Below, one piece after another: positions 19,961 through 29,704 of a stretch of 64,000 bases of DNA (position 1 is the first letter of the stretch; every line of letters starts with the position of its first letter). Both the position numbers and the translations under genes were made by a program. The notes beneath the pieces were generated by a model that saw nothing but the letters and a program-made list of their open reading frames with translations, had not been told where the DNA came from and searched no databases. The DNA lies in assembly GCA_038131165.1 (NCBI GenBank), contig JAYPOZ010000002.1, forward strand, positions 52,755 through 116,754, given 5' to 3'. The stretch comes from Rickettsiales bacterium. Lineage in GTDB: Bacteria; Pseudomonadota; Alphaproteobacteria; UBA8366.

Positions 19961-21094
19961 ATGTCGACTCTCTTCCGTTACATCACCAAACAGCTTCTCT
20001 TCACGACACTTTTCGTAACCCTGATCCTGTGCATGATTTTTTGGCTCGGAAAAGCCTCGACGCTTCTCGATTTTATTCTGAACCGTGGCCTCGATTTCGG
20101 ATTTTTTCTCTATATGAGCATGCTGATATTACCGCGCCTGCTCATCATTATCCTTCCTATCGCGACTTTCGCCACACTTCTATTCGGGTACTACAGGCTT
20201 CAGACGGACAGCGAGCTCGTTGTCATGAGAGCTGCGGGGACAAGTACCTTTGCGCTCGCCAAGCCAGGTCTCTTCGTTGGCGCGATCATCATGGTGCTGA
20301 TGGCGGTCTTGACGTTGTATCTGCTGCCAGCCTCCTACCGCGAATTCAAGGATCAGGAATTCTTGATCCGCCACCAGTTCGGATCCGTGTTTCTACAAGA
20401 GGGGAATTTCAATACCGTCGCCCCTGGCGTTACGGTTTTCGTCCACAAAAGAGGCGTCGACCAGGAACTCCATGGCATTATGCTCCACGACAACCGCGAC
20501 CCAAAGAAACCGCAAACCTGGCTCGCCGAACGGGGCGCCCTGGTTTCCACGGAAAACGGACCCCGGGCGGTCATGGTCAACGGAAATCGCCAGCAGGTGG
20601 ATCGAACAGAGGGCAAATTCTCCATGCTGTTGTTCGATCAGACGACGCTCGATATCGGCGGCACCGCCGATCCCAAATTCAACCGCTGGCGCGAACCTCG
20701 CGAGCGTTTTATCGACGACCTCTTCGACCCTAAGGATACAAATCCGAGCGAACCCTACTACGCAGACCTGATCGCGGAGGGGCACAGCCGCCTCATACAG
20801 CCACTCCTACCGCTCACTTGCGCCGCCGTGACATTGGCGCTTTTGCTCACCGGCAGTTATAGCCGCCGGGGTCAAATGCTCGATATTCTGAAGGCCATTT
20901 CAGTGACCGTCTTGATCCTGGTGGCCAGCCTCGGCACGAGGAGTCTTGCCACAAAACAGCCGATCATGATCTTTGCAATGTATGCGAATGCGCTCGTGCC
21001 GTTGGTCGTCGCTCTGTATTTCCTCTTGAAAACACAAAAATTACGACCTTCTTGGCGTGCCCGAAAGGCGCTACGCCAGGCGAACGGCGCCTAA
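19961..21094 (+). CDS. lptF: LPS export ABC transporter permease LptF
   Basis: YjgP/YjgQ family. MSTLFRYITKQLLFTTLFVTLIL. Divergent from pepA. Confidence 0.9.
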   Translation: MSTLFRYITKQLLFTTLFVTLILCMIFWLGKASTLLDFILNRGLDFGFFLYMSMLILPRLLIIILPIATFATLLFGYYRLQTDSELVVMRAAGTSTFALAKPGLFVGAIIMVLMAVLTLYLLPASYREFKDQEFLIRHQFGSVFLQEGNFNTVAPGVTVFVHKRGVDQELHGIMLHDNRDPKKPQTWLAERGALVSTENGPRAVMVNGNRQQVDRTEGKFSMLLFDQTTLDIGGTADPKFNRWREPRERFIDDLFDPKDTNPSEPYYADLIAEGHSRLIQPLLPLTCAAVTLALLLTGSYSRRGQMLDILKAISVTVLILVASLGTRSLATKQPIMIFAMYANALVPLVVALYFLLKTQKLRPSWRARKALRQANGA

Positions 21095-22986
21095 CGCTCG
21101 CCCTGACATTTGGTGAGGTCGAAATGCTTATAGACTCTCGTCAATCTGCCCAGCGGGCGATGCTCCCACACTCTTTCGACACCCCACGCATCACCCGATC
21201 GCGCCAATAACGCCGCCTTACCGGCCGCCACGTCGACCTTCAAGGCGTCGCTGATCCATTGCGCGGGACAATAGGCCCACACATAGGCCGGCCGAGCTTT
21301 GGAAGCGGTCAAGAAAGCGTCGAGCTGTGCGGATGTATTCACCACCACGCCCCGGACATCGCGACGTGAAACCGCCAGGTAATGGCTGAATATCGACGTA
21401 AAGTTTCCAAAATCTCCGGGCACGATCACGGCAATGGCCGCGTTCGGCGGCAACTTCGCCGCCATGGAAAGCCCGGCTTGGCGCAACAGCGGTTTGGGAA
21501 CCTCCAAATCGAAGCGCCAGTAATTGGCAAGCGCCGTCTCCATCGCCGGAATAAATACCACGAGACCGACCGCAACGCGGCTCAGCCCCCGGGCGACGCT
21601 CGATCCGATGCGCGATTGATAATCGCGATATAACAGGCCCGCGCCGAACACCGCCGTCGCGGCGATCAGATATCCAATATGCGTGTTAAACCGCCAATAA
21701 GACTGCGGATATCCGTTGAAATGGGCCACAAATATAAGCAGCAAGAACAGGTTGTATCCGACGAAAACGGCTCCCACCATGATAGCGAGCCGGTCAAAGT
21801 CGCTTTCTGGCCGCCGGAACCACGCGCGAAGGCCCCATATAAAGAGACCCACGGCCAAAGCGAAGTATATCGCCTTTCGATACACGACGATGCCCATATT
21901 GCGCAGCAAATCCGGTAGCCGTTCTAACGGCCATGCTTCAAGCGGCAGCATCTTGTTCTCTTGCAAGGGGGTCACCACGACAAGATAGTAGCGCCAAGTA
22001 AAATACAGGATCACCGCCAGACCGATGAAGATGGGCAACCGTTTCAGATAAAGCGAAAAACCAATCTTGCGGTCACGCAAAACCACCAATCCCATGGCGA
22101 CAACCAACGCGACCACCAGCACCAGATTGGCTTGTTTGATGTTGATCAGCAACGTGAGCAACAGACCAAACGTAATCGCCCGCGCTCTTTCGCCCTCCTC
22201 CGATTTCGCGGCGGCCTGGAGCCACAACCAACCGGCAATCCCGGCGAACGCAACCACGACCGACGTCGCCATATCCGGATAAGACGTCAGCCATATCCGG
22301 CGGACAAAGACAGGATTGAGAAGCGTCGCCAAGAGCAGGCCCAGTGCCGCGAGCTTCCAATTGACCGCAGGCTCGCCCGGCTGTCCCCATCGCAGCAGCC
22401 AAACCAAGAGCGCCGCAAACATCAGAAGCAATAGAACATTGAAAAGAATGACCGCATTTTCGACGAATTGACCCGCCACCTGGCCAACGGCGAAGAATAG
22501 GAATGTCACAGTGTAGGGAAAGCCCGGGTAGGCAGAATGACTCTGCGGCCGGTCGCCCCGCAGAAATCCATCCTGTTCGAAGATATAAAGCCCATTTGGG
22601 AGCCAATGGGTAAAACTATCGACCTCGGACGGAACCTTTCCGGCCATAATAATAAGCAACGGGGCCCCGAGGATCACAAACGGCAGAAATCCTTTCAAGC
22701 CCGCAAGCGCGGCGCCGCGCGTCCAAATCAGGCTCAGGGCTGCAATGCCAACCAAACCCCACCAGACCAACGAGAACGGAAGCGAGGTAAAGACACCAAC
22801 GACCGTCAGCGCAGCGGCCGTGATTGCCCAACCGGTCAGCACCGCAACAGCCGGGAGCTCCCTGGAGCCGCCGGGTACCGCGCCGACAGCGGCAAAGACC
22901 AAGGCCACACACCCCGCGGCCCCAAGGCCGATCCATTGACCGGCTTCCGGCAGAAACACTCGGAGAGCCTCCAGATAGGAAGTCAT
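21091..22986 (-). CDS. 631-aa polytopic membrane protein, candidate GT-C type glycosyl (pentofuranosyl) transferase
   Basis: At least 12 hydrophobic segments over ~480 aa, then a ~150-aa soluble C-terminal domain. Acidic loop motif PSEVDSFTHW. Last gene of the UbiA-DprE1-DprE2-like cassette. Family not confirmed. Confidence 0.5.
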   Translation of the reverse strand: MTSYLEALRVFLPEAGQWIGLGAAGCVALVFAAVGAVPGGSRELPAVAVLTGWAITAAALTVVGVFTSLPFSLVWWGLVGIAALSLIWTRGAALAGLKGFLPFVILGAPLLIIMAGKVPSEVDSFTHWLPNGLYIFEQDGFLRGDRPQSHSAYPGFPYTVTFLFFAVGQVAGQFVENAVILFNVLLLLMFAALLVWLLRWGQPGEPAVNWKLAALGLLLATLLNPVFVRRIWLTSYPDMATSVVVAFAGIAGWLWLQAAAKSEEGERARAITFGLLLTLLINIKQANLVLVVALVVAMGLVVLRDRKIGFSLYLKRLPIFIGLAVILYFTWRYYLVVVTPLQENKMLPLEAWPLERLPDLLRNMGIVVYRKAIYFALAVGLFIWGLRAWFRRPESDFDRLAIMVGAVFVGYNLFLLLIFVAHFNGYPQSYWRFNTHIGYLIAATAVFGAGLLYRDYQSRIGSSVARGLSRVAVGLVVFIPAMETALANYWRFDLEVPKPLLRQAGLSMAAKLPPNAAIAVIVPGDFGNFTSIFSHYLAVSRRDVRGVVVNTSAQLDAFLTASKARPAYVWAYCPAQWISDALKVDVAAGKAALLARSGDAWGVERVWEHRPLGRLTRVYKHFDLTKCQGER

Positions 22987-23039: not shown

Positions 23040-23777
23040 TCATATGTTCAACCTCTTAAAAACACGTTCGGGAATATATCGAATGATGAGCATGATATAG
23101 CGCCAGAACCATGGGAAGTATGCCGTCTCCCGGGCGGCTTCCGCGAGCCGAAGACACGCGGCCGCACAGGCATCGGGCGACGCGACAAGAAACAGGCCCG
23201 GCGACCCGAAGGTCATATCCGTATCGACAAACCCCGCCTTCACGGTTGTCACGGTCACGCCGCGCCGCCAAAGCCGAGCCCTCAATCCTTGGAGATAGGC
23301 GTTCAGCCCCGCTTTCGCCGATCCGTAGACATAGTTCTTCAAACGACCGCGGTCTCCGGAAACCGAGCTTAAGACCACAATTCTGCCTTCGCTTCGCGCC
23401 TCGAAGACGGGCGCCAGCACCGAGAGCACGGACATCGCACCCAGGTAATTCACCTCTACCGTTTGGCGCGCCAGCTCGAAATCCATGTCGATATCGGCCT
23501 GCTCCGGCATCGCGCCAAACAAGAGAAAAACCCCAATCGGTCCGTCGGATTCCGCCAAAGCGGCGCTTATTGCCGCATGACCTGCGGAATCCGCCGCATC
23601 GAACTGAAGCGCTCTAGCCTCTCCACCATAGCGAGTCGCAATATCTTGGGCGTTTCTTTCCAGGTCCGGCATATCCCGTCCCGCCAGCAAGACACTGCAC
23701 CCGCGGGCAGCAACCTGGCGGCCGAAAGCGCGCCCGATCGATGACGACGCCCCCAATATGAGCCAGGTGCGCTTCAT
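23040..23777 (-). CDS. SDR reductase, DprE2-like (polyprenyl-phospho-2-keto-pentofuranose reductase)
   Basis: WLILGASSSIGRA, YVYGSAKAG (YxxxK). Located between the DprE1-like and membrane transferase genes. Confidence 0.7.
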   Translation of the reverse strand: MKRTWLILGASSSIGRAFGRQVAARGCSVLLAGRDMPDLERNAQDIATRYGGEARALQFDAADSAGHAAISAALAESDGPIGVFLLFGAMPEQADIDMDFELARQTVEVNYLGAMSVLSVLAPVFEARSEGRIVVLSSVSGDRGRLKNYVYGSAKAGLNAYLQGLRARLWRRGVTVTTVKAGFVDTDMTFGSPGLFLVASPDACAAACLRLAEAARETAYFPWFWRYIMLIIRYIPERVFKRLNI

Positions 23778-23790
23778 GCGTCCGTCCGCC

Positions 23791-25128
23791 TCATGATTCT
23801 GGCCGAATCTTCAGGCGCCGGGCCATATCGGAATCGAAAACCCGATCCGGATCGAACGCCTCGAGCACAGCGCGAAACTGCGCCAGTTTCGGATACATTT
23901 TCGCAAAAGCCTCGGCGGACATGGTGGCGTCCTTTGCCAGATATATCCGGCCCTCGTGATCCAGCGTGATCGCTTCCAGACGGCGCATCAGCTCGCCCGA
24001 GGCCGGACGCGCCGGAATATCCAAACTCAGCGTGACCCCCGGCATCGGAAAGGAGAGATAACCGATCCCTTCCGGCCCGAAGCTCTTCAGCACACCCAGG
24101 AACGAGGCGGCTTGCGCCTCGGAGACCTCTTCCAAGAGACGCCTGATGCCCTGAAGGGCGCTCGCGTCCGGCAGGACACACTGAAATTGGTAGAATCCGC
24201 CCGTACCGTAGAGGCGGTTCCAATGGGCGATCGCATCGAGCGGATGGTGGAAGGCTCCATCGGACACAACCCTCTTCCGCCCATCGGCCGGCACCCGGCG
24301 GTAGTAGAGCGCGTTGAAGAGGCCCACGCTGTATCGATTCAAAGTCATACCGGGAAACGTGAACGGCACGGACAGGGCGCGCGGAACGGCCTCCTTACCG
24401 GTCGCTTCAATAGGCTCCGCGGCTTGAAAGATACCTCGGCCCAGATTGGCACCCTTCTGAAGCGCGTCGATCCAGCCGACGGTATAGGTCGCCTGGCCCC
24501 GATGTTCGGACATGAGCTCGAAAAAATGCTCAAGGTTTCGAACCCGCCATTCCCGTGTCTCTACCGCACCGGATTGTTGGCGCAACAGTCGAATCCCGGC
24601 CGCCGCGATCACCCCCGTCAGGCCGCACCCGCCGATCGTCGCCGCAAAAAGATCGGGCAGTTCGTCGTGCGACGCGCGCACCTGACGTCCGTCCGCCAGG
24701 ATCAAATCGAGCCATTCGAGATGCTGGCCCAAACTGCCGTGCAGGTCGTGGTTCTTGCCGTGCACGTCACTGGCGACGCCGCCGCCAAGCGTCGCAAACG
24801 CCGTCCCGGGCGCCACGGGCGAGGCGAAACCGCGCGGTGCCGCAAATGCTTGCAGTTCAGCAAAGGTCACCCCGGCCTCGACGGAGACCACGCCGTGTTC
24901 CTCGTCGAACGCGAAGATACGGTCCAACCGGCGCATCGAAATCGCCGTGCCCTGGTCGCAGATTCCAAGGTCGCCATAGTTCCGGCCGTCTCCGGTGGCA
25001 ATCGTGCCCGAACTCGCCGCCGCCCGCACCGCGGCAGCGATCTGAGCGGCACGTTCCGGCCGATAAACCGACATCTCGGCGGACCGGCTTTGCCCCCAGG
25101 AAGTTACCACGGTTTGCTTCGGGCGCAC
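23791..25128 (-). CDS. FAD-binding oxidase, DprE1-like (polyprenyl-phosphoribose 2'-oxidase)
   Basis: 445 aa. GDGRNYGD, TLGGGVASDVHGKNH (compare the Mtb DprE1 HGKNH region). 12-nt gap after the UbiA gene. Confidence 0.75.
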   Translation of the reverse strand: MRPKQTVVTSWGQSRSAEMSVYRPERAAQIAAAVRAAASSGTIATGDGRNYGDLGICDQGTAISMRRLDRIFAFDEEHGVVSVEAGVTFAELQAFAAPRGFASPVAPGTAFATLGGGVASDVHGKNHDLHGSLGQHLEWLDLILADGRQVRASHDELPDLFAATIGGCGLTGVIAAAGIRLLRQQSGAVETREWRVRNLEHFFELMSEHRGQATYTVGWIDALQKGANLGRGIFQAAEPIEATGKEAVPRALSVPFTFPGMTLNRYSVGLFNALYYRRVPADGRKRVVSDGAFHHPLDAIAHWNRLYGTGGFYQFQCVLPDASALQGIRRLLEEVSEAQAASFLGVLKSFGPEGIGYLSFPMPGVTLSLDIPARPASGELMRRLEAITLDHEGRIYLAKDATMSAEAFAKMYPKLAQFRAVLEAFDPDRVFDSDMARRLKIRPES

Positions 25129-25140
25129 GATCAGGAGCTC

Positions 25141-26004
25141 CTAAACATACATCAGAAATGCGAAAGCGCCGATCCAGCCAAGGACGGCAATCACCAAGAA
25201 GGGATCGCTGAGCGCCAGGTCTGTCGGCGAACCGGAGCGTTTATAAACCATGGTAAGCTGCAAGTGCCGGAGTGTTCCGGCAATGACAAAGGGAATGGTA
25301 AGGTAAAGTTTATCGCTGCCGAGGCGCTGCATCGCGTCTGGGTCCGTCGTGAACACGACATACGAGACGACCAGAGCCGTCGACACCATGACGAACGACG
25401 CATCGAGAAACGCAATCGAGTATCCGCCGAGACTTTCGCGATGCTCCGCATTCAATTCCTGGGTAAGGTCGTCACGACGCTTCGTCAATGCGATGAAAAG
25501 CGCCAGCATTCCCGTGCACACCAAGATCCAAACCGTCGGCTCCAAACTTGCGGCAGCCGCGCCGGCGTAGACGCGCAGGACAAATCCCAAGGCGATGGTC
25601 AACACGTCGACGATCGCCAAGCGTTTGAGTACGAACGAGTATAGAATCGTGAGTCCCAAATAGGCGGCAAGCACCCAACCGCCTTTTGTCATGACGAAGG
25701 CGATTGCCAAACCAGATGCCGCCAGAACGCCGCTTAGGATAAGCGCCACCGTTGGCGAGATCGTCCCCGCGGCGACGGGACGCAACCTTTTCTGCGGGTG
25801 TAGCTTGTCGGAATCGCGATCGCAAAAATCATTCAGGCAATACAAGCCGCTCGCCCCGAGACAGAATGCCGCAAACATGAACAGGACATCCGACAAGGCG
25901 CTATCCGCCGACGCCGCGGGACTGAAAAACAGGGGGGCGAAGACAAAAACGTTCTTCACCCACTGTCGCGGCCGAAGCAGTTTGACGATTGCAGCACCCG
26001 TCAC
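25141..26004 (-). CDS. UbiA-family polyprenyl-phosphate phosphoribosyltransferase (Rv3806c-like)
   Basis: LRPRQWVKNVFVFAPLFF N-terminus and NDFCDRDSDKLHPQKRLRPVAAG (NDxxDxxxD). Confidence 0.8.
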   Translation of the reverse strand: MTGAAIVKLLRPRQWVKNVFVFAPLFFSPAASADSALSDVLFMFAAFCLGASGLYCLNDFCDRDSDKLHPQKRLRPVAAGTISPTVALILSGVLAASGLAIAFVMTKGGWVLAAYLGLTILYSFVLKRLAIVDVLTIALGFVLRVYAGAAAASLEPTVWILVCTGMLALFIALTKRRDDLTQELNAEHRESLGGYSIAFLDASFVMVSTALVVSYVVFTTDPDAMQRLGSDKLYLTIPFVIAGTLRHLQLTMVYKRSGSPTDLALSDPFLVIAVLGWIGAFAFLMYV

Positions 26005-26447
26005 GACCGCGCCCTCATCTTCCGCCGGTCGACATCTTCATCGCCCTTGTGGCTGCGGTTGGTAAAGCCAAAGCATTCTTCCATTCTTGCCCAAGGCCAT
26101 CCGGCCGAAAGCCAAAACTTGCCCCAGGGGAAAGCATCACTCTAATCGAAAAAGACTTTTAAAGTCATGACGTTCCGGTCTATTACTGTGCCCAATAAAA
26201 AAAAGCCAGGGTACGGATAGATAAACATACACATACTTCGAACGCTCACGTTCAGTTAACTTTACCGATTTATTGTAAATCGACTTCGATTTAGTTGGCT
26301 GCAATTGTCCGCAAGAACCGTAACGAGCGCGTTTGCGTGTATGGAAATCTGAACCTCGATCGTCGAGGTCTCTGCGTGACCCGGGTGTATTGGAGCCAAG
26401 TCCGGTACGGCCATGATCGGTCGTCCGAAATATTTCCGAGGGTATAG

Positions 26448-27542
26448 GTGCGACTGTCGCTGACCTTATCGAGTTACCTTGGCCGCCAGTATGCATTCTG
26501 GCTGGCCAGCGCTTTCTGTGCGTTGATGGGAATCGCGCTGCTGTTCGACGTCGTCGAAATGATGCGGCGCGCGTCGGGCAAGGAAGACGCGACCATCGCC
26601 ATCATCATCCAGATGAGCCTGTTCAAGCTGCCGCATCTTGCCGAGACGATTCTCCCCTTCACCGTCCTTTTTGGCGCGATGTTTGCGTTCTGGCGTCTTG
26701 CGAATGCGAACGAGATCATCGTCGCCAGGGCGGCGGGCGTCTCGATTTGGCAATTTCTCCTGCCGGCAATGATTTGCACTCTTGCGGTCGGCATCTTCCA
26801 GGTCACGATTTTCAACCCCTTTTCAGCGGTCATGTTGTCCAAGTTCGAAAGTGTCGAAGCGAAATACCTGAAGCGAACGACGAGCATGCTCGCCGTGTCT
26901 CGAAACGGTCTATGGCTCAGGCAATCGGATGCCGGTGGCCAAGCGGTAATCCATGCACTGCGTGTCTCGAAAGCGGAAATGAAGCTGCACGACGTCATTA
27001 TCTTTCTGTTTGAAGGTGATGAAAAATTCGTGGGCCGCATCGACGCCGAGACGGCCCAACTCAAGGTCGGATATTGGGACATCCGGAACGGTTGGCTTTC
27101 CAGCCCGAATCGCGCCGCCCACCGGGTCGAGCGTTACGAATTACCGTCCGACCTGACGCTGACGAAAATTCAGGAAAGCTTTGCCTCTCCCGAGACGATG
27201 TCGTTTTGGGATCTGCCCGGATTTATCGCCGAGTTGGAAGCCGCCGGATTTTCCGGGCACCGCCACCGCCTGCATCTCTATTCCCTATTCGCGCTGCCGG
27301 TCCTGCTCTGCGCCATGGTGCTGGTGGCCGCGGCATTTACGGTCCATATCAACAGGAGATCCGGCGCCTTCTTCGCGATGGCGGGCGGCGTGTTGATCAG
27401 TTTCATGTTGTATATTTTGGGGGATGTCGTCCACGCGTTAGGCCTCTCGACGAACGTGCCGACGGAGTTGGCCGCCTGGACCCCGGCCGGCGTCACCATG
27501 ATGATCGGCCTCGCTCTTCTTCTGCATCTCGAGGACGGATGA
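26448..27542 (+). CDS. lptG: LPS export ABC transporter permease LptG
   Basis: GTG start. LSSYLGRQYAFWLASAFCALMGIALLFDVVEMMRRA. Stop overlaps the lptD start. Confidence 0.9.
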   Translation: MRLSLTLSSYLGRQYAFWLASAFCALMGIALLFDVVEMMRRASGKEDATIAIIIQMSLFKLPHLAETILPFTVLFGAMFAFWRLANANEIIVARAAGVSIWQFLLPAMICTLAVGIFQVTIFNPFSAVMLSKFESVEAKYLKRTTSMLAVSRNGLWLRQSDAGGQAVIHALRVSKAEMKLHDVIIFLFEGDEKFVGRIDAETAQLKVGYWDIRNGWLSSPNRAAHRVERYELPSDLTLTKIQESFASPETMSFWDLPGFIAELEAAGFSGHRHRLHLYSLFALPVLLCAMVLVAAAFTVHINRRSGAFFAMAGGVLISFMLYILGDVVHALGLSTNVPTELAAWTPAGVTMMIGLALLLHLEDG

Positions 27543-29704
27543 TGCAGCGCATTGCACTTGTCCTCTGGATTTTGGGTTTTTTGGTTCTGGCCAATTCGGT
27601 TTCGGCACGAGACCCGCTTTCGACCGAACTTCCCGTGCTTCTGCAGGCAGACGAGATCAACTACGATCAGGAATTGGGCACCGTTGTCGCCCGAGGGAAA
27701 GTTGAAATTTCCCAAGGTGGGCGGACCCTGTTTGCCGACACGTTGAGCTATAACCAGAAAACAGAGACGGTCAGCGCATCCGGGAACATCGTGCTGCATG
27801 AACCGTCCGGCGAGGTCATCTTTGCGGAGTTTGTCGAACTGACGGACCAGCTAAAAAACGGCGTGATTAATCGAATTCGCATCTTGCTGTTGGACGATAG
27901 CCGGTTTGCGGCGAACAATGCCGTCCGCAGGGATGGTAACACAACGACCATGGAACGCGCCGTCTATTCTCCCTGCAAGCTTTGCGAGGAAAATCCGAAT
28001 GCCCCGCCGCTCTGGCAATTGAAGGCCGAGCGCGTCCAACACGATCAGGAAGATCGGGAGGTTCGCTATAAAGACGTCTATCTGGAAATGTGGGGCATTC
28101 CTGTCGCCTATTCCCCTTATCTCTCGCATCCGGACCCCTCGGTAGATCGGAAGACAGGCTTTCTCGCGCCAGATTTCGGCACCGGCGGCAATGTCGGCGC
28201 TTTTATCCGCTTGCCCTATTTCATCACCGTCGGAGATGATAAGGACGTCACCCTGGATCCGATTTACACGGAAGAAGAAGGCCTTGTCTTAAGCGGTGAA
28301 TATCGCCAACGCTTTCTTAACGGCGAATTGGCTTTGTCGGGCAGCATCGCCGAGGCACAACGCAAAGAGGGCGACCCGAATAACGCCACCGTCAAAGATG
28401 ACCGGTTGCGAGGCCATTTATCGGCCGATGCCAAGTACCACATCGACGAAACCTGGCGTGCCGGTGTCAGCGTTAACCGCGCAAGCGACCGCTCCTATCT
28501 GCGCAAGTTCGATTTCTTTTCGCTGAATCGGAACACTCTGCGCTCCAACGCAGTACTGGAAGGGTTCCGTCGGCGGAATTATATCGCCGCCAACGCCTTT
28601 TCGTTCCAAGATCTGCGGACAGACGACCGGGCAGAACAGCCCATTGTTGCCCCGTCGCTCGATTTCAACCATCTCGGCGAAGCGGACCGGCTCGGCGGGC
28701 GTTGGCAATTCGATGGGAACATTATAACACTTTTCCGGGAAGCAGGTTCGGATAGCCAGCGGATATCTCTAAAGCCAGGTTATAGTCTCGGTCGCACTTG
28801 GGATTTCGGTTTAATCACAACGGCAACCGCAACGGCACAAGTTGACGGATACAGAATTGAAAATAACTCTGGCGGCACGGACGACTATACTCTCAGGGGT
28901 CGCCTGTTTCCCCAATTGGCGGTTGATGCCAGTTATCCCTTCGTTCGCCAAACCGGTAAATTGACGCAACTGATCGAGCCGGTCGCAACTGGCATATTGG
29001 CGCCGAACGGCAGCAATCCCAATATCATACCGGACGAAGAAAGTACCGTGTTCGAACTCGATGACACGAACCTGCTCAGTCATGACCGGTTCGCCGGTAC
29101 CGACCGCGTCGATAGCGGCTCCCGGATCGTTTATGGAGTGAGAATGGGGCTTTATGGCCCGTTGGTCGGAAATATAACGGGATTCTTTGGCCAGAGTTAC
29201 CGCTTCCATACGGATAGAGATTTGCGGAACTCTAAAGCGCTGGAAGAAGATTTCTCGGACTATGTCGGCCGGGTCGACGTCAAGCCCAATCAATATGTCG
29301 ATGTCCTGTATCGGTTCCGTTTCAGCGAATCCGATTTCAGCAGCCGGAGTTCCGCCGTAGGTTTTGCCATCGGCCCCGCGGCAATGCGGGTTTCTGGCGA
29401 GTACTTCTTCGTCGAAGAGGGCACGGCAGCCGGCAATGCCGAGCAACGAGAGGAATTGACCATCGCCTTAAATTCTAAGATCAATAGATATTGGTCGGCA
29501 GGTTTGTCCACGAGACGAGATCTTACCAGCGACGGGGGGTCGCTCCTGCATTCGCTTTCCGTTCGCTACGAAGACGAGTGCTTTACACTCGACACCTCGG
29601 CGCAGCGAAGCTTCACGCGCGATGCTGATATCGAACCGGAAAGCCGAATTTTATTCCGGCTCATTTTCAAGCATCTTGGCCAGGTTGAATCGAGCGCTGG
29701 ATAG
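27539..29704 (+). CDS. lptD: LPS assembly outer membrane protein LptD
   Basis: Internal start MMQRIALVLWILGFLVLANSVSA (signal peptide) at 27539, OstA N-domain (LLQADEINYDQE) and a large beta-barrel. The tracked ORF from 27074 is an in-frame upstream extension over lptG. Confidence 0.9.
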   Translation: MMQRIALVLWILGFLVLANSVSARDPLSTELPVLLQADEINYDQELGTVVARGKVEISQGGRTLFADTLSYNQKTETVSASGNIVLHEPSGEVIFAEFVELTDQLKNGVINRIRILLLDDSRFAANNAVRRDGNTTTMERAVYSPCKLCEENPNAPPLWQLKAERVQHDQEDREVRYKDVYLEMWGIPVAYSPYLSHPDPSVDRKTGFLAPDFGTGGNVGAFIRLPYFITVGDDKDVTLDPIYTEEEGLVLSGEYRQRFLNGELALSGSIAEAQRKEGDPNNATVKDDRLRGHLSADAKYHIDETWRAGVSVNRASDRSYLRKFDFFSLNRNTLRSNAVLEGFRRRNYIAANAFSFQDLRTDDRAEQPIVAPSLDFNHLGEADRLGGRWQFDGNIITLFREAGSDSQRISLKPGYSLGRTWDFGLITTATATAQVDGYRIENNSGGTDDYTLRGRLFPQLAVDASYPFVRQTGKLTQLIEPVATGILAPNGSNPNIIPDEESTVFELDDTNLLSHDRFAGTDRVDSGSRIVYGVRMGLYGPLVGNITGFFGQSYRFHTDRDLRNSKALEEDFSDYVGRVDVKPNQYVDVLYRFRFSESDFSSRSSAVGFAIGPAAMRVSGEYFFVEEGTAAGNAEQREELTIALNSKINRYWSAGLSTRRDLTSDGGSLLHSLSVRYEDECFTLDTSAQRSFTRDADIEPESRILFRLIFKHLGQVESSAG

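Follow-up and report, generated by a model that had tools for sequence, protein, structure and literature searches.

A GT-C-fold membrane protein encoded beside a predicted arabinofuranose donor cassette between lptF and lptG in an alphaproteobacterium

Enzymes of the GT-C class of glycosyltransferases build or modify major surface glycans, and in systems such as ArnT (GT83, PMT_2) with ArnC, or the Gtr type (GtrB of family GT2 plus a GT-C-like transferase), a polyprenyl-phosphate-sugar synthase works with a periplasmic GT-C enzyme that modifies lipid A or lipopolysaccharide (LPS). Polyprenyl-phospho-D-arabinofuranose is provided as a donor by the UbiA/DprE1/DprE2 pathway, which has been described in mycobacteria, for Pseudomonas TfpW and in the systems of Kelly et al. 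2024 (PMC11127046). The latter are three-component pentofuranose side-chain systems, as in Citrobacter youngae (ORF15/ORF14/ORF12), with a GT136 transferase that is described as 11 helices plus a beta-rich carbohydrate-binding module (CBM) and is promiscuous between ribofuranose (Ribf) and xylofuranose (Xylf) donors; epimerase acquisition was suggested to diversify serotypes (PMC11127046). Mycobacterial AftA has 13 helices, with TM1-2 outside an 11-helix GT-C core; its catalytic Asp128 is on the first long outer loop, which consists of two crossed helices, and its C-terminal domain is periplasmic and of the alpha5-beta5 type (PMC10265970). Here we analyze P0001, a gene located between lptF and lptG in a window of 64,000 nucleotides (the whole stretch of DNA analyzed) from a Rickettsiales bacterium (assembly GCA_038131165.1, contig JAYPOZ010000002.1, positions 52,755 to 116,754). 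Structural comparison assigns its product to the GT-C enzymes, and we propose, with a rough probability of 0.55, that it is a periplasmic-face GT-C transferase that adds lipid-linked arabinose supplied by its operon partners, most likely to LPS.

P0001 encodes a 631-aa protein at 21091..22986 on the minus strand (stop codon 21091-21093), and its annotation as a GT-C-fold membrane glycosyltransferase is based on the open reading frame (ORF) together with an AlphaFold2 model and Foldseek searches. An earlier sequence-only reading had placed this ORF at the same positions without giving a strand, and had counted at least 12 hydrophobic segments over about 480 aa ahead of a tail of about 150 aa. 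That outline holds, and a hydropathy scan combined with the DSSP string of the AlphaFold2 model refines it to approximately 14 membrane helices within residues 15-486 (21529..22944, minus strand), followed by a non-hydrophobic alpha/beta tail of 145 aa (residues 487-631; 21094..21528, minus strand). This soluble C-terminal domain, an alpha/beta sandwich of five strands and roughly five helices that is opened by an invariant R491-x-D493, is predicted to be periplasmic. The gene is present in one copy in its 4.8-Mb genome, a metagenome-assembled genome (MAG) of 253 contigs; 42 relatives were found in a word-indexed database and 539 clusters at 50% identity in an exhaustive search (E <= 0.001), and 221 loci with an intact gene were identified in GTDB species genomes. 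Because it is single-copy, has many relatives and is intact in these 221 species genomes, P0001 is a genuine conserved gene rather than a chance ORF.

When P0001 was compared with Pfam, NCBIfam and PDB sequences, no significant match was found, and neither profiles built from 35 and 110 of its relatives nor a phmmer search with P0001 itself matched any PDB sequence. In agreement with the earlier reading, which could not place the protein in a specific GT-C family, none of 78 diverse family members reached any GT-C Pfam model (PMT_2, AftA_N, Arabinose_trans, TMEM260-like and others); the sole TMEM260-like match among them was not significant (E = 0.0096), the other Pfam matches were scattered, as by chance, and the relatives are named 'hypothetical protein' throughout their sources. 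The AlphaFold2 model of P0001, built from a 35-sequence alignment, scored 89.5 in the predicted local distance difference test (pLDDT) and 0.91 in predicted template modelling (pTM). In a Foldseek search of this model against the PDB, ranks 1 to 14 were all GT-C enzymes (probability 0.90-1.00), the best match being AftA (8if8; E = 7e-5; template modelling (TM) scores 0.43/0.45), followed by AglB, PglB, Pmt4, DPY19, AftB, ALG3 and AftD; against viral structures, nothing significant was found. The helix count of P0001 also agrees with the polytopic domain of GT-C enzymes, which has 8-13 or more helices. P0001 might alternatively be a transporter, flippase or scaffold that merely resembles GT-C proteins, as could be argued from the lack of a sequence match to any characterized GT-C, from its extra N-terminal helices and from an operon without a flippase. 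However, MFS and other transporters were returned with probabilities below 0.25 and TM-scores of about 0.1, a conserved Asp occupies the canonical loop, the conserved residues lie mostly on the predicted periplasmic side, and polyprenyl-phosphate-sugar synthases recur as partners of the family, so that we consider such a function highly improbable. Thus, as the sequence-only reading had proposed, P0001 is a GT-C candidate, and the model makes it very probable that it has this fold; the family is an undescribed sequence family within a known enzyme class, set apart from GT136 by description, with an alpha/beta C-terminal domain where GT136 has a beta-rich CBM. Folded alone, the C-terminal domain gave a pLDDT of 85 and a best E of 0.04 among PDB structures; it is a Rossmann-like sandwich of a generic kind, matched neither a CBM nor a lectin, and is therefore uninformative as to the acceptor.

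AftA (GT85), the priming arabinofuranosyltransferase of Mycobacterium tuberculosis, resembles P0001 in size (about 640 aa compared to 631 aa) and, as judged from secondary structure set against the published description of AftA, including its 11-helix core, in architecture as well. Both proteins have extra N-terminal helices (15-34, 47-66 and 71-88 in P0001) ahead of the core, which in P0001 starts at helix 99-117, then an Asp on a two-helix first long loop (D123 and D128, respectively), further core helices (ten in P0001) and an alpha/beta C-terminal domain, and each is found beside a donor pathway of the DPPRS/DprE1/DprE2 type. The two proteins share no sequence similarity detectable by phmmer or by the two profile searches; P0001 has three extra helices, whereas AftA has two, which implies a periplasmic N-terminus for P0001; the Arg at +4 from the Asp of AftA is replaced by His or is variable in the P0001 family; and P0001 belongs to a Gram-negative alphaproteobacterium and an LPS context, whereas AftA acts in the context of arabinogalactan.

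The first long extracytoplasmic loop of P0001 comprises residues 118-177 (22456..22635, minus strand), with helices 122-138 and 159-171, and is net acidic across the family. The tripeptide E121-V122-D123 (22618..22626, minus strand) does stand where the sequence-only reading had noted it, and D123 (codon 22618-22620) is located in the model at the start of the first of the two helices. Of the likeness to the D/ExD loop of GT-C enzymes seen in that reading, the part that stands is D123, which is invariant in the 35 closest sequences and conserved at 90% or more in alignments of 78 and 110 sequences; E121 (E, Q or L) and V122 (V, W or P) vary among the relatives, so that EVD is one conserved Asp and not a D/ExD motif. 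When net loop charges were counted family-wide, the D123 loop carried -2.7, compared to +0.9 for loop 35-46, +1.35 for loop 89-98, +1.0 for loop 305-314, +1.1 for loop 392-397 and +1.35 for loop 457-466; the N-terminus is short and acidic. Given an acidic loop between positive loops, the positive-inside rule predicts that the D123 loop and the C-terminal domain are periplasmic, and the N-terminus is likewise predicted to be on the periplasmic side; a cytoplasmic location of the EVD loop, which would have spoken against the earlier proposal, is thus not what the charges indicate. Under this topology, 23 of the 26 near-invariant positions are, by our reading, on the periplasmic half (the near-invariant positions include N183, P225, Y236, W352, K371, S429-R432-Y433 and R491-x-D493), the pattern that an active site on the periplasmic side would predict. 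D123 is a candidate catalytic base, and K284, K371, R432 and R491 might contact the donor phosphate.

The gene order in the window is pepA (minus), lptF (plus), P0001, a short-chain dehydrogenase/reductase (SDR) gene, a flavin adenine dinucleotide (FAD) oxidase gene and a UbiA gene (all minus), then lptG, lptD, surA and pdxA (plus). The four co-oriented genes are separated by gaps of 12, 13 and 53 nt, there are no terminator-like sites in these gaps, and a promoter/terminator scan of the operon remained at or near chance level; apparently, they form one operon in which P0001 is last. The leading gene (25141..26004, minus strand) encodes a UbiA-family, DPPRS-like polyprenyl-phosphate phosphoribosyltransferase (NF008977, 5.7e-68, 229.5 bits with a cut-off of 234; PDB 8j8j, 2.6e-35) of 287 aa that carries no additional domain. 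It is followed by the DprE1-like FAD oxidase (23791..25128, minus strand; NF053785, 3.5e-119; PDB DprE1, 1.3e-77) and by the SDR, a DprE2-like 2-keto reductase (23040..23777, minus strand; NF053786, 3e-49), which ends 53 nt upstream of P0001; all three matches are under the NCBIfam equivalog cut-offs. Within this four-gene operon P0001 is the only transferase candidate, as the sequence-only reading had it. The lptF gene (19961..21094, plus strand) is convergent with P0001, and lptG (26448..27542, plus strand) is divergent from the operon.

Several local features accompany this arrangement. The stop codons of lptF and P0001 overlap by 4 nt (21091-21094), leaving no terminator space between the convergent genes. 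The 443-nt spacer between the UbiA-led operon and lptG (26005-26447) was empty in the promoter scan; its only ORF (26137-26496, 119 aa) has a low-complexity translation, overlaps the start of lptG and was treated as non-coding. The longest lptD ORF (27074-29704), of 876 aa from a TTG start, shares 469 nt with lptG, and the LptD Pfam match starts near residue 191, so that the true start of LptD is probably far downstream.

The locus shares with the systems of Kelly et al. a UbiA-type polyprenyl-phosphoribose synthase, DprE1/E2-type epimerases (optional there) and a GT-C enzyme, which in those systems modifies an LPS glycan in the periplasm. It differs in that the synthase lacks a fused phosphatase domain, no MATE or SMR flippase gene is adjacent, and the genes do not belong to an O-antigen cluster but stand between lptF and lptG. 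By description, P0001 can also be likened to TfpW of Pseudomonas aeruginosa, a GT-C-type enzyme of a Gram-negative bacterium that uses lipid-linked D-arabinofuranose (D-Araf) made by DPPRS/DprE1/DprE2 homologues; TfpW, however, glycosylates pilin and is encoded in a pilin locus, whereas the P0001 locus has no pilin genes.

The carriers of the P0001 family are almost all marine or aquatic MAGs labelled Rhodospirillales, Rhodospirillaceae, Thalassospiraceae or Magnetovibrio; the family was found in 6 of the 10 genera of the window's taxonomic family and in none of 33 genomes from other families of its order. In a tree of 81 sequences, the family falls into two halves. The half that includes the window has 28 rows, in about 20 of which the gene adjoins pepA/lptF/lptG, with lptF and lptG as its neighbors in some and pepA and lptF in others. 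In the other half (53 rows), groES-groEL precede the gene, which often has a B12-radical-SAM gene next to it; at 18 loci of this half (L001, L037-L039, L045, L059, L099 and others), the GT-C gene is flanked by a gene for a B12-binding radical-SAM protein of about 505 aa, and at a few of these groES-groEL-type loci, genes for an LPG_synthase_TM protein and a second radical-SAM protein adjoin. A copy in genus g3 (G023:C20:8368-10126) contains four stop codons (one TAG, three TAA) and is apparently a pseudogene. A polytopic protein of 517 aa, P0045 (L003:6408-7961, plus strand), whose C-terminal part is soluble and which has no Pfam or NCBIfam match, is encoded between lptF and pepA, immediately upstream of a distant member of the family; as a paralogue of P0001 it was rejected (hhalign probability 0.4%), and it may be another undescribed membrane enzyme.

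Seven relatives in the window's half have, immediately downstream of the GT-C gene, a gene for a 306-aa GT2 protein that matches AglJ over its full length (TIGR04182, 2.9e-62), as well as dolichyl-phosphate-hexose transferase and PpgS. Because of the AglJ-type match and its two C-terminal membrane helices, this protein is identified as a putative polyprenyl-phosphate sugar synthase. In two further relatives, a smaller GT2 of the AglJ-like kind and a STELLO-like glycosyltransferase are encoded between lptF and lptG. This pairing with AglJ/DPM-like GT2 enzymes is reminiscent of the ArnT and Gtr systems. However, the PMT_2 model matches 0 of the 78 family members, and the donor module of the window is a pentofuranose pathway.

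The arrangement of cassette and GT-C gene is kept in five genomes of the window's genus, although the GT-Cs are only 53-62% identical, and the five cassette-linked GT-Cs form one clade with a Shimodaira-Hasegawa-like approximate likelihood ratio test (SH-aLRT) support of 100. The first outgroup of this clade is L026, where lpt, GT2 and STELLO genes are all missing within 7 kb. It is followed by L016/L033, in which STELLO separates lptF from lptG, and next by L027 and L035, in which GT2 and STELLO take the lptF|lptG position that the cassette occupies in the window's genus. Orthologues of the latter GT2 and STELLO, 58-61% identical, are present in G011 and G012, and none were found in four genomes of the window's genus. 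This pattern is most simply read as one exchange of the donor module, with the transferase next to it being retained, and polyprenyl-phospho-arabinofuranose is, in our estimate, the probable donor of P0001, at somewhat better than even odds.

P0001 could instead be a GT-C that uses another polyprenyl-phosphate sugar, for instance a hexose, with the cassette feeding a transferase encoded elsewhere. Strict co-occurrence of the family with the arabinose cassette had to be rejected: in genera g3-g6, genomes with the GT-C lack DprE1 and DPPRS homologues altogether, and g2 and g10 carry the cassette alone between lptF and lptG, without any P0001-family member, in genomes with 4-6 PMT_2 GT-Cs each; genome G000 likewise has two PMT_2-type candidates. 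Since each of the two occurs without the other, their adjacency could reflect two independent occupants of one insertion hot-spot. The loci with the cassette alone between lptG and lptF are from two sister genera (L024, G025:C1:946000-965500; L025, G016:C9:198000-217500); there the cassette is 54-63% identical and has no GT-C gene beside it. However, the operon is tightly spaced and has been kept through 53-62% divergence, the outgroup GT2 and STELLO are missing from the window's genus, genome G007 of that genus (96% complete), which carries both cassette and GT-C, lacks a PMT_2-type GT-C as an alternative user of the donor, and the best structural match is an enzyme dependent on decaprenyl-phospho-arabinose. 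On balance, a different donor appears unlikely for P0001; the earlier link between cassette and transferase holds for the window's genus but not for the whole P0001 family.

With respect to the acceptor, which the sequence-only reading had left unspecified, the conserved linkage to lptF and lptG together with PagL narrows the field to LPS, at about even odds by our estimate. The lptF/lptG linkage recurs in two gene orders and across 28-60% identity, the lptF|lptG site is also used by the cassette alone in other genera, and PagL, a lipid A 3-O-deacylase, adjoins the GT-C gene in two genera. In genus g4, the GT-C gene is outside the lpt locus, between genes for a PagL-like lipid A deacylase and an AT3-SGNH acyltransferase (L017:8586-9119, L017:11390-13267), forming a small envelope-modification cluster. 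Our search of the literature yielded nothing specific on the P0001 family, on a GT-C between lptF and lptG or on D-Araf in alphaproteobacterial LPS. The pentofuranose might instead go to a capsule, an exopolysaccharide, a periplasmic glucan or a protein of the periplasm or the cell surface (pilin being the target of TfpW), the lpt neighborhood then representing inherited synteny. Such an acceptor would fit the half of the family that has no lpt context, the lack of an informative fold match for the C-terminal domain, and the fact that pilin, O antigen and cell-wall glycans are the targets of known GT-C systems for pentofuranose. The persistence of the lptF/lptG linkage through both gene orders and the PagL neighbors argue against it, as does the absence of pilin and capsule genes near the locus, and we regard a non-LPS acceptor as rather improbable.

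If P0001 acts as we propose, the UbiA enzyme would first move phosphoribose from phosphoribosyl pyrophosphate (PRPP) onto polyprenyl phosphate; after dephosphorylation, C2 would be epimerized by the DprE1-like oxidase and the DprE2-like reductase, yielding polyprenyl-phospho-D-arabinofuranose, which would then reach the periplasmic leaflet. There, the first long loop would make up a groove together with the C-terminal domain and the remaining conserved loops on the periplasmic side; P0001 would bind the donor in this groove, and D123 would activate an acceptor hydroxyl to receive the pentofuranose. The acceptor would most likely be lipopolysaccharide (lipid A-core or an attached glycan), modified before the Lpt machinery extracts it. 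Apart from the separate occurrences of cassette and transferase, several observations weigh against this proposal. The TM-scores of P0001 to solved GT-Cs are modest (0.43-0.45), and the correspondence of D123 with D128 was read from secondary structure. The operon contains no phosphatase or flippase gene (MATE, SMR or GtrA), the neighbors of the locus being lptF, lptG and pepA. The larger half of the tree (53 of 81 rows) has no lpt link, and the linkage in the window's half could be inherited synteny rather than functional coupling. Finally, the organism is known only as a MAG.

A broader proposal, which we put forward as speculative and rather doubtful, is that P0001 founds a new CAZy-level GT-C family of Rhodospirillales-type alphaproteobacteria that would decorate lipid A-core at the point of LptFG extraction, the sugar being re-set by swapping of donor modules (the D-Araf pathway in the window's genus, but a hexose synthase of the GT2 type in its relatives); with no flippase in the operon, the three extra N-terminal helices might help the donor to cross the membrane.

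New GT-C families are still being founded, GT136 in 2024 being an example, and the present analysis provides some 540 sequence clusters, unrecognized by Pfam, NCBIfam and PDB sequences, with a predicted fold, a probable class of substrate and a residue that may be catalytic. The mycobacterial type of donor pathway for D-arabinofuranose is also extended to marine alphaproteobacteria, where its genes hold an unusual position and keep lptF and lptG apart. Compared across genera, the loci resemble a natural experiment in which donor modules have been exchanged beside one transferase scaffold, which may be of interest for glycoengineering. For the biology of these abundant, mostly uncultured marine bacteria, the finding predicts that their LPS would carry D-Araf.

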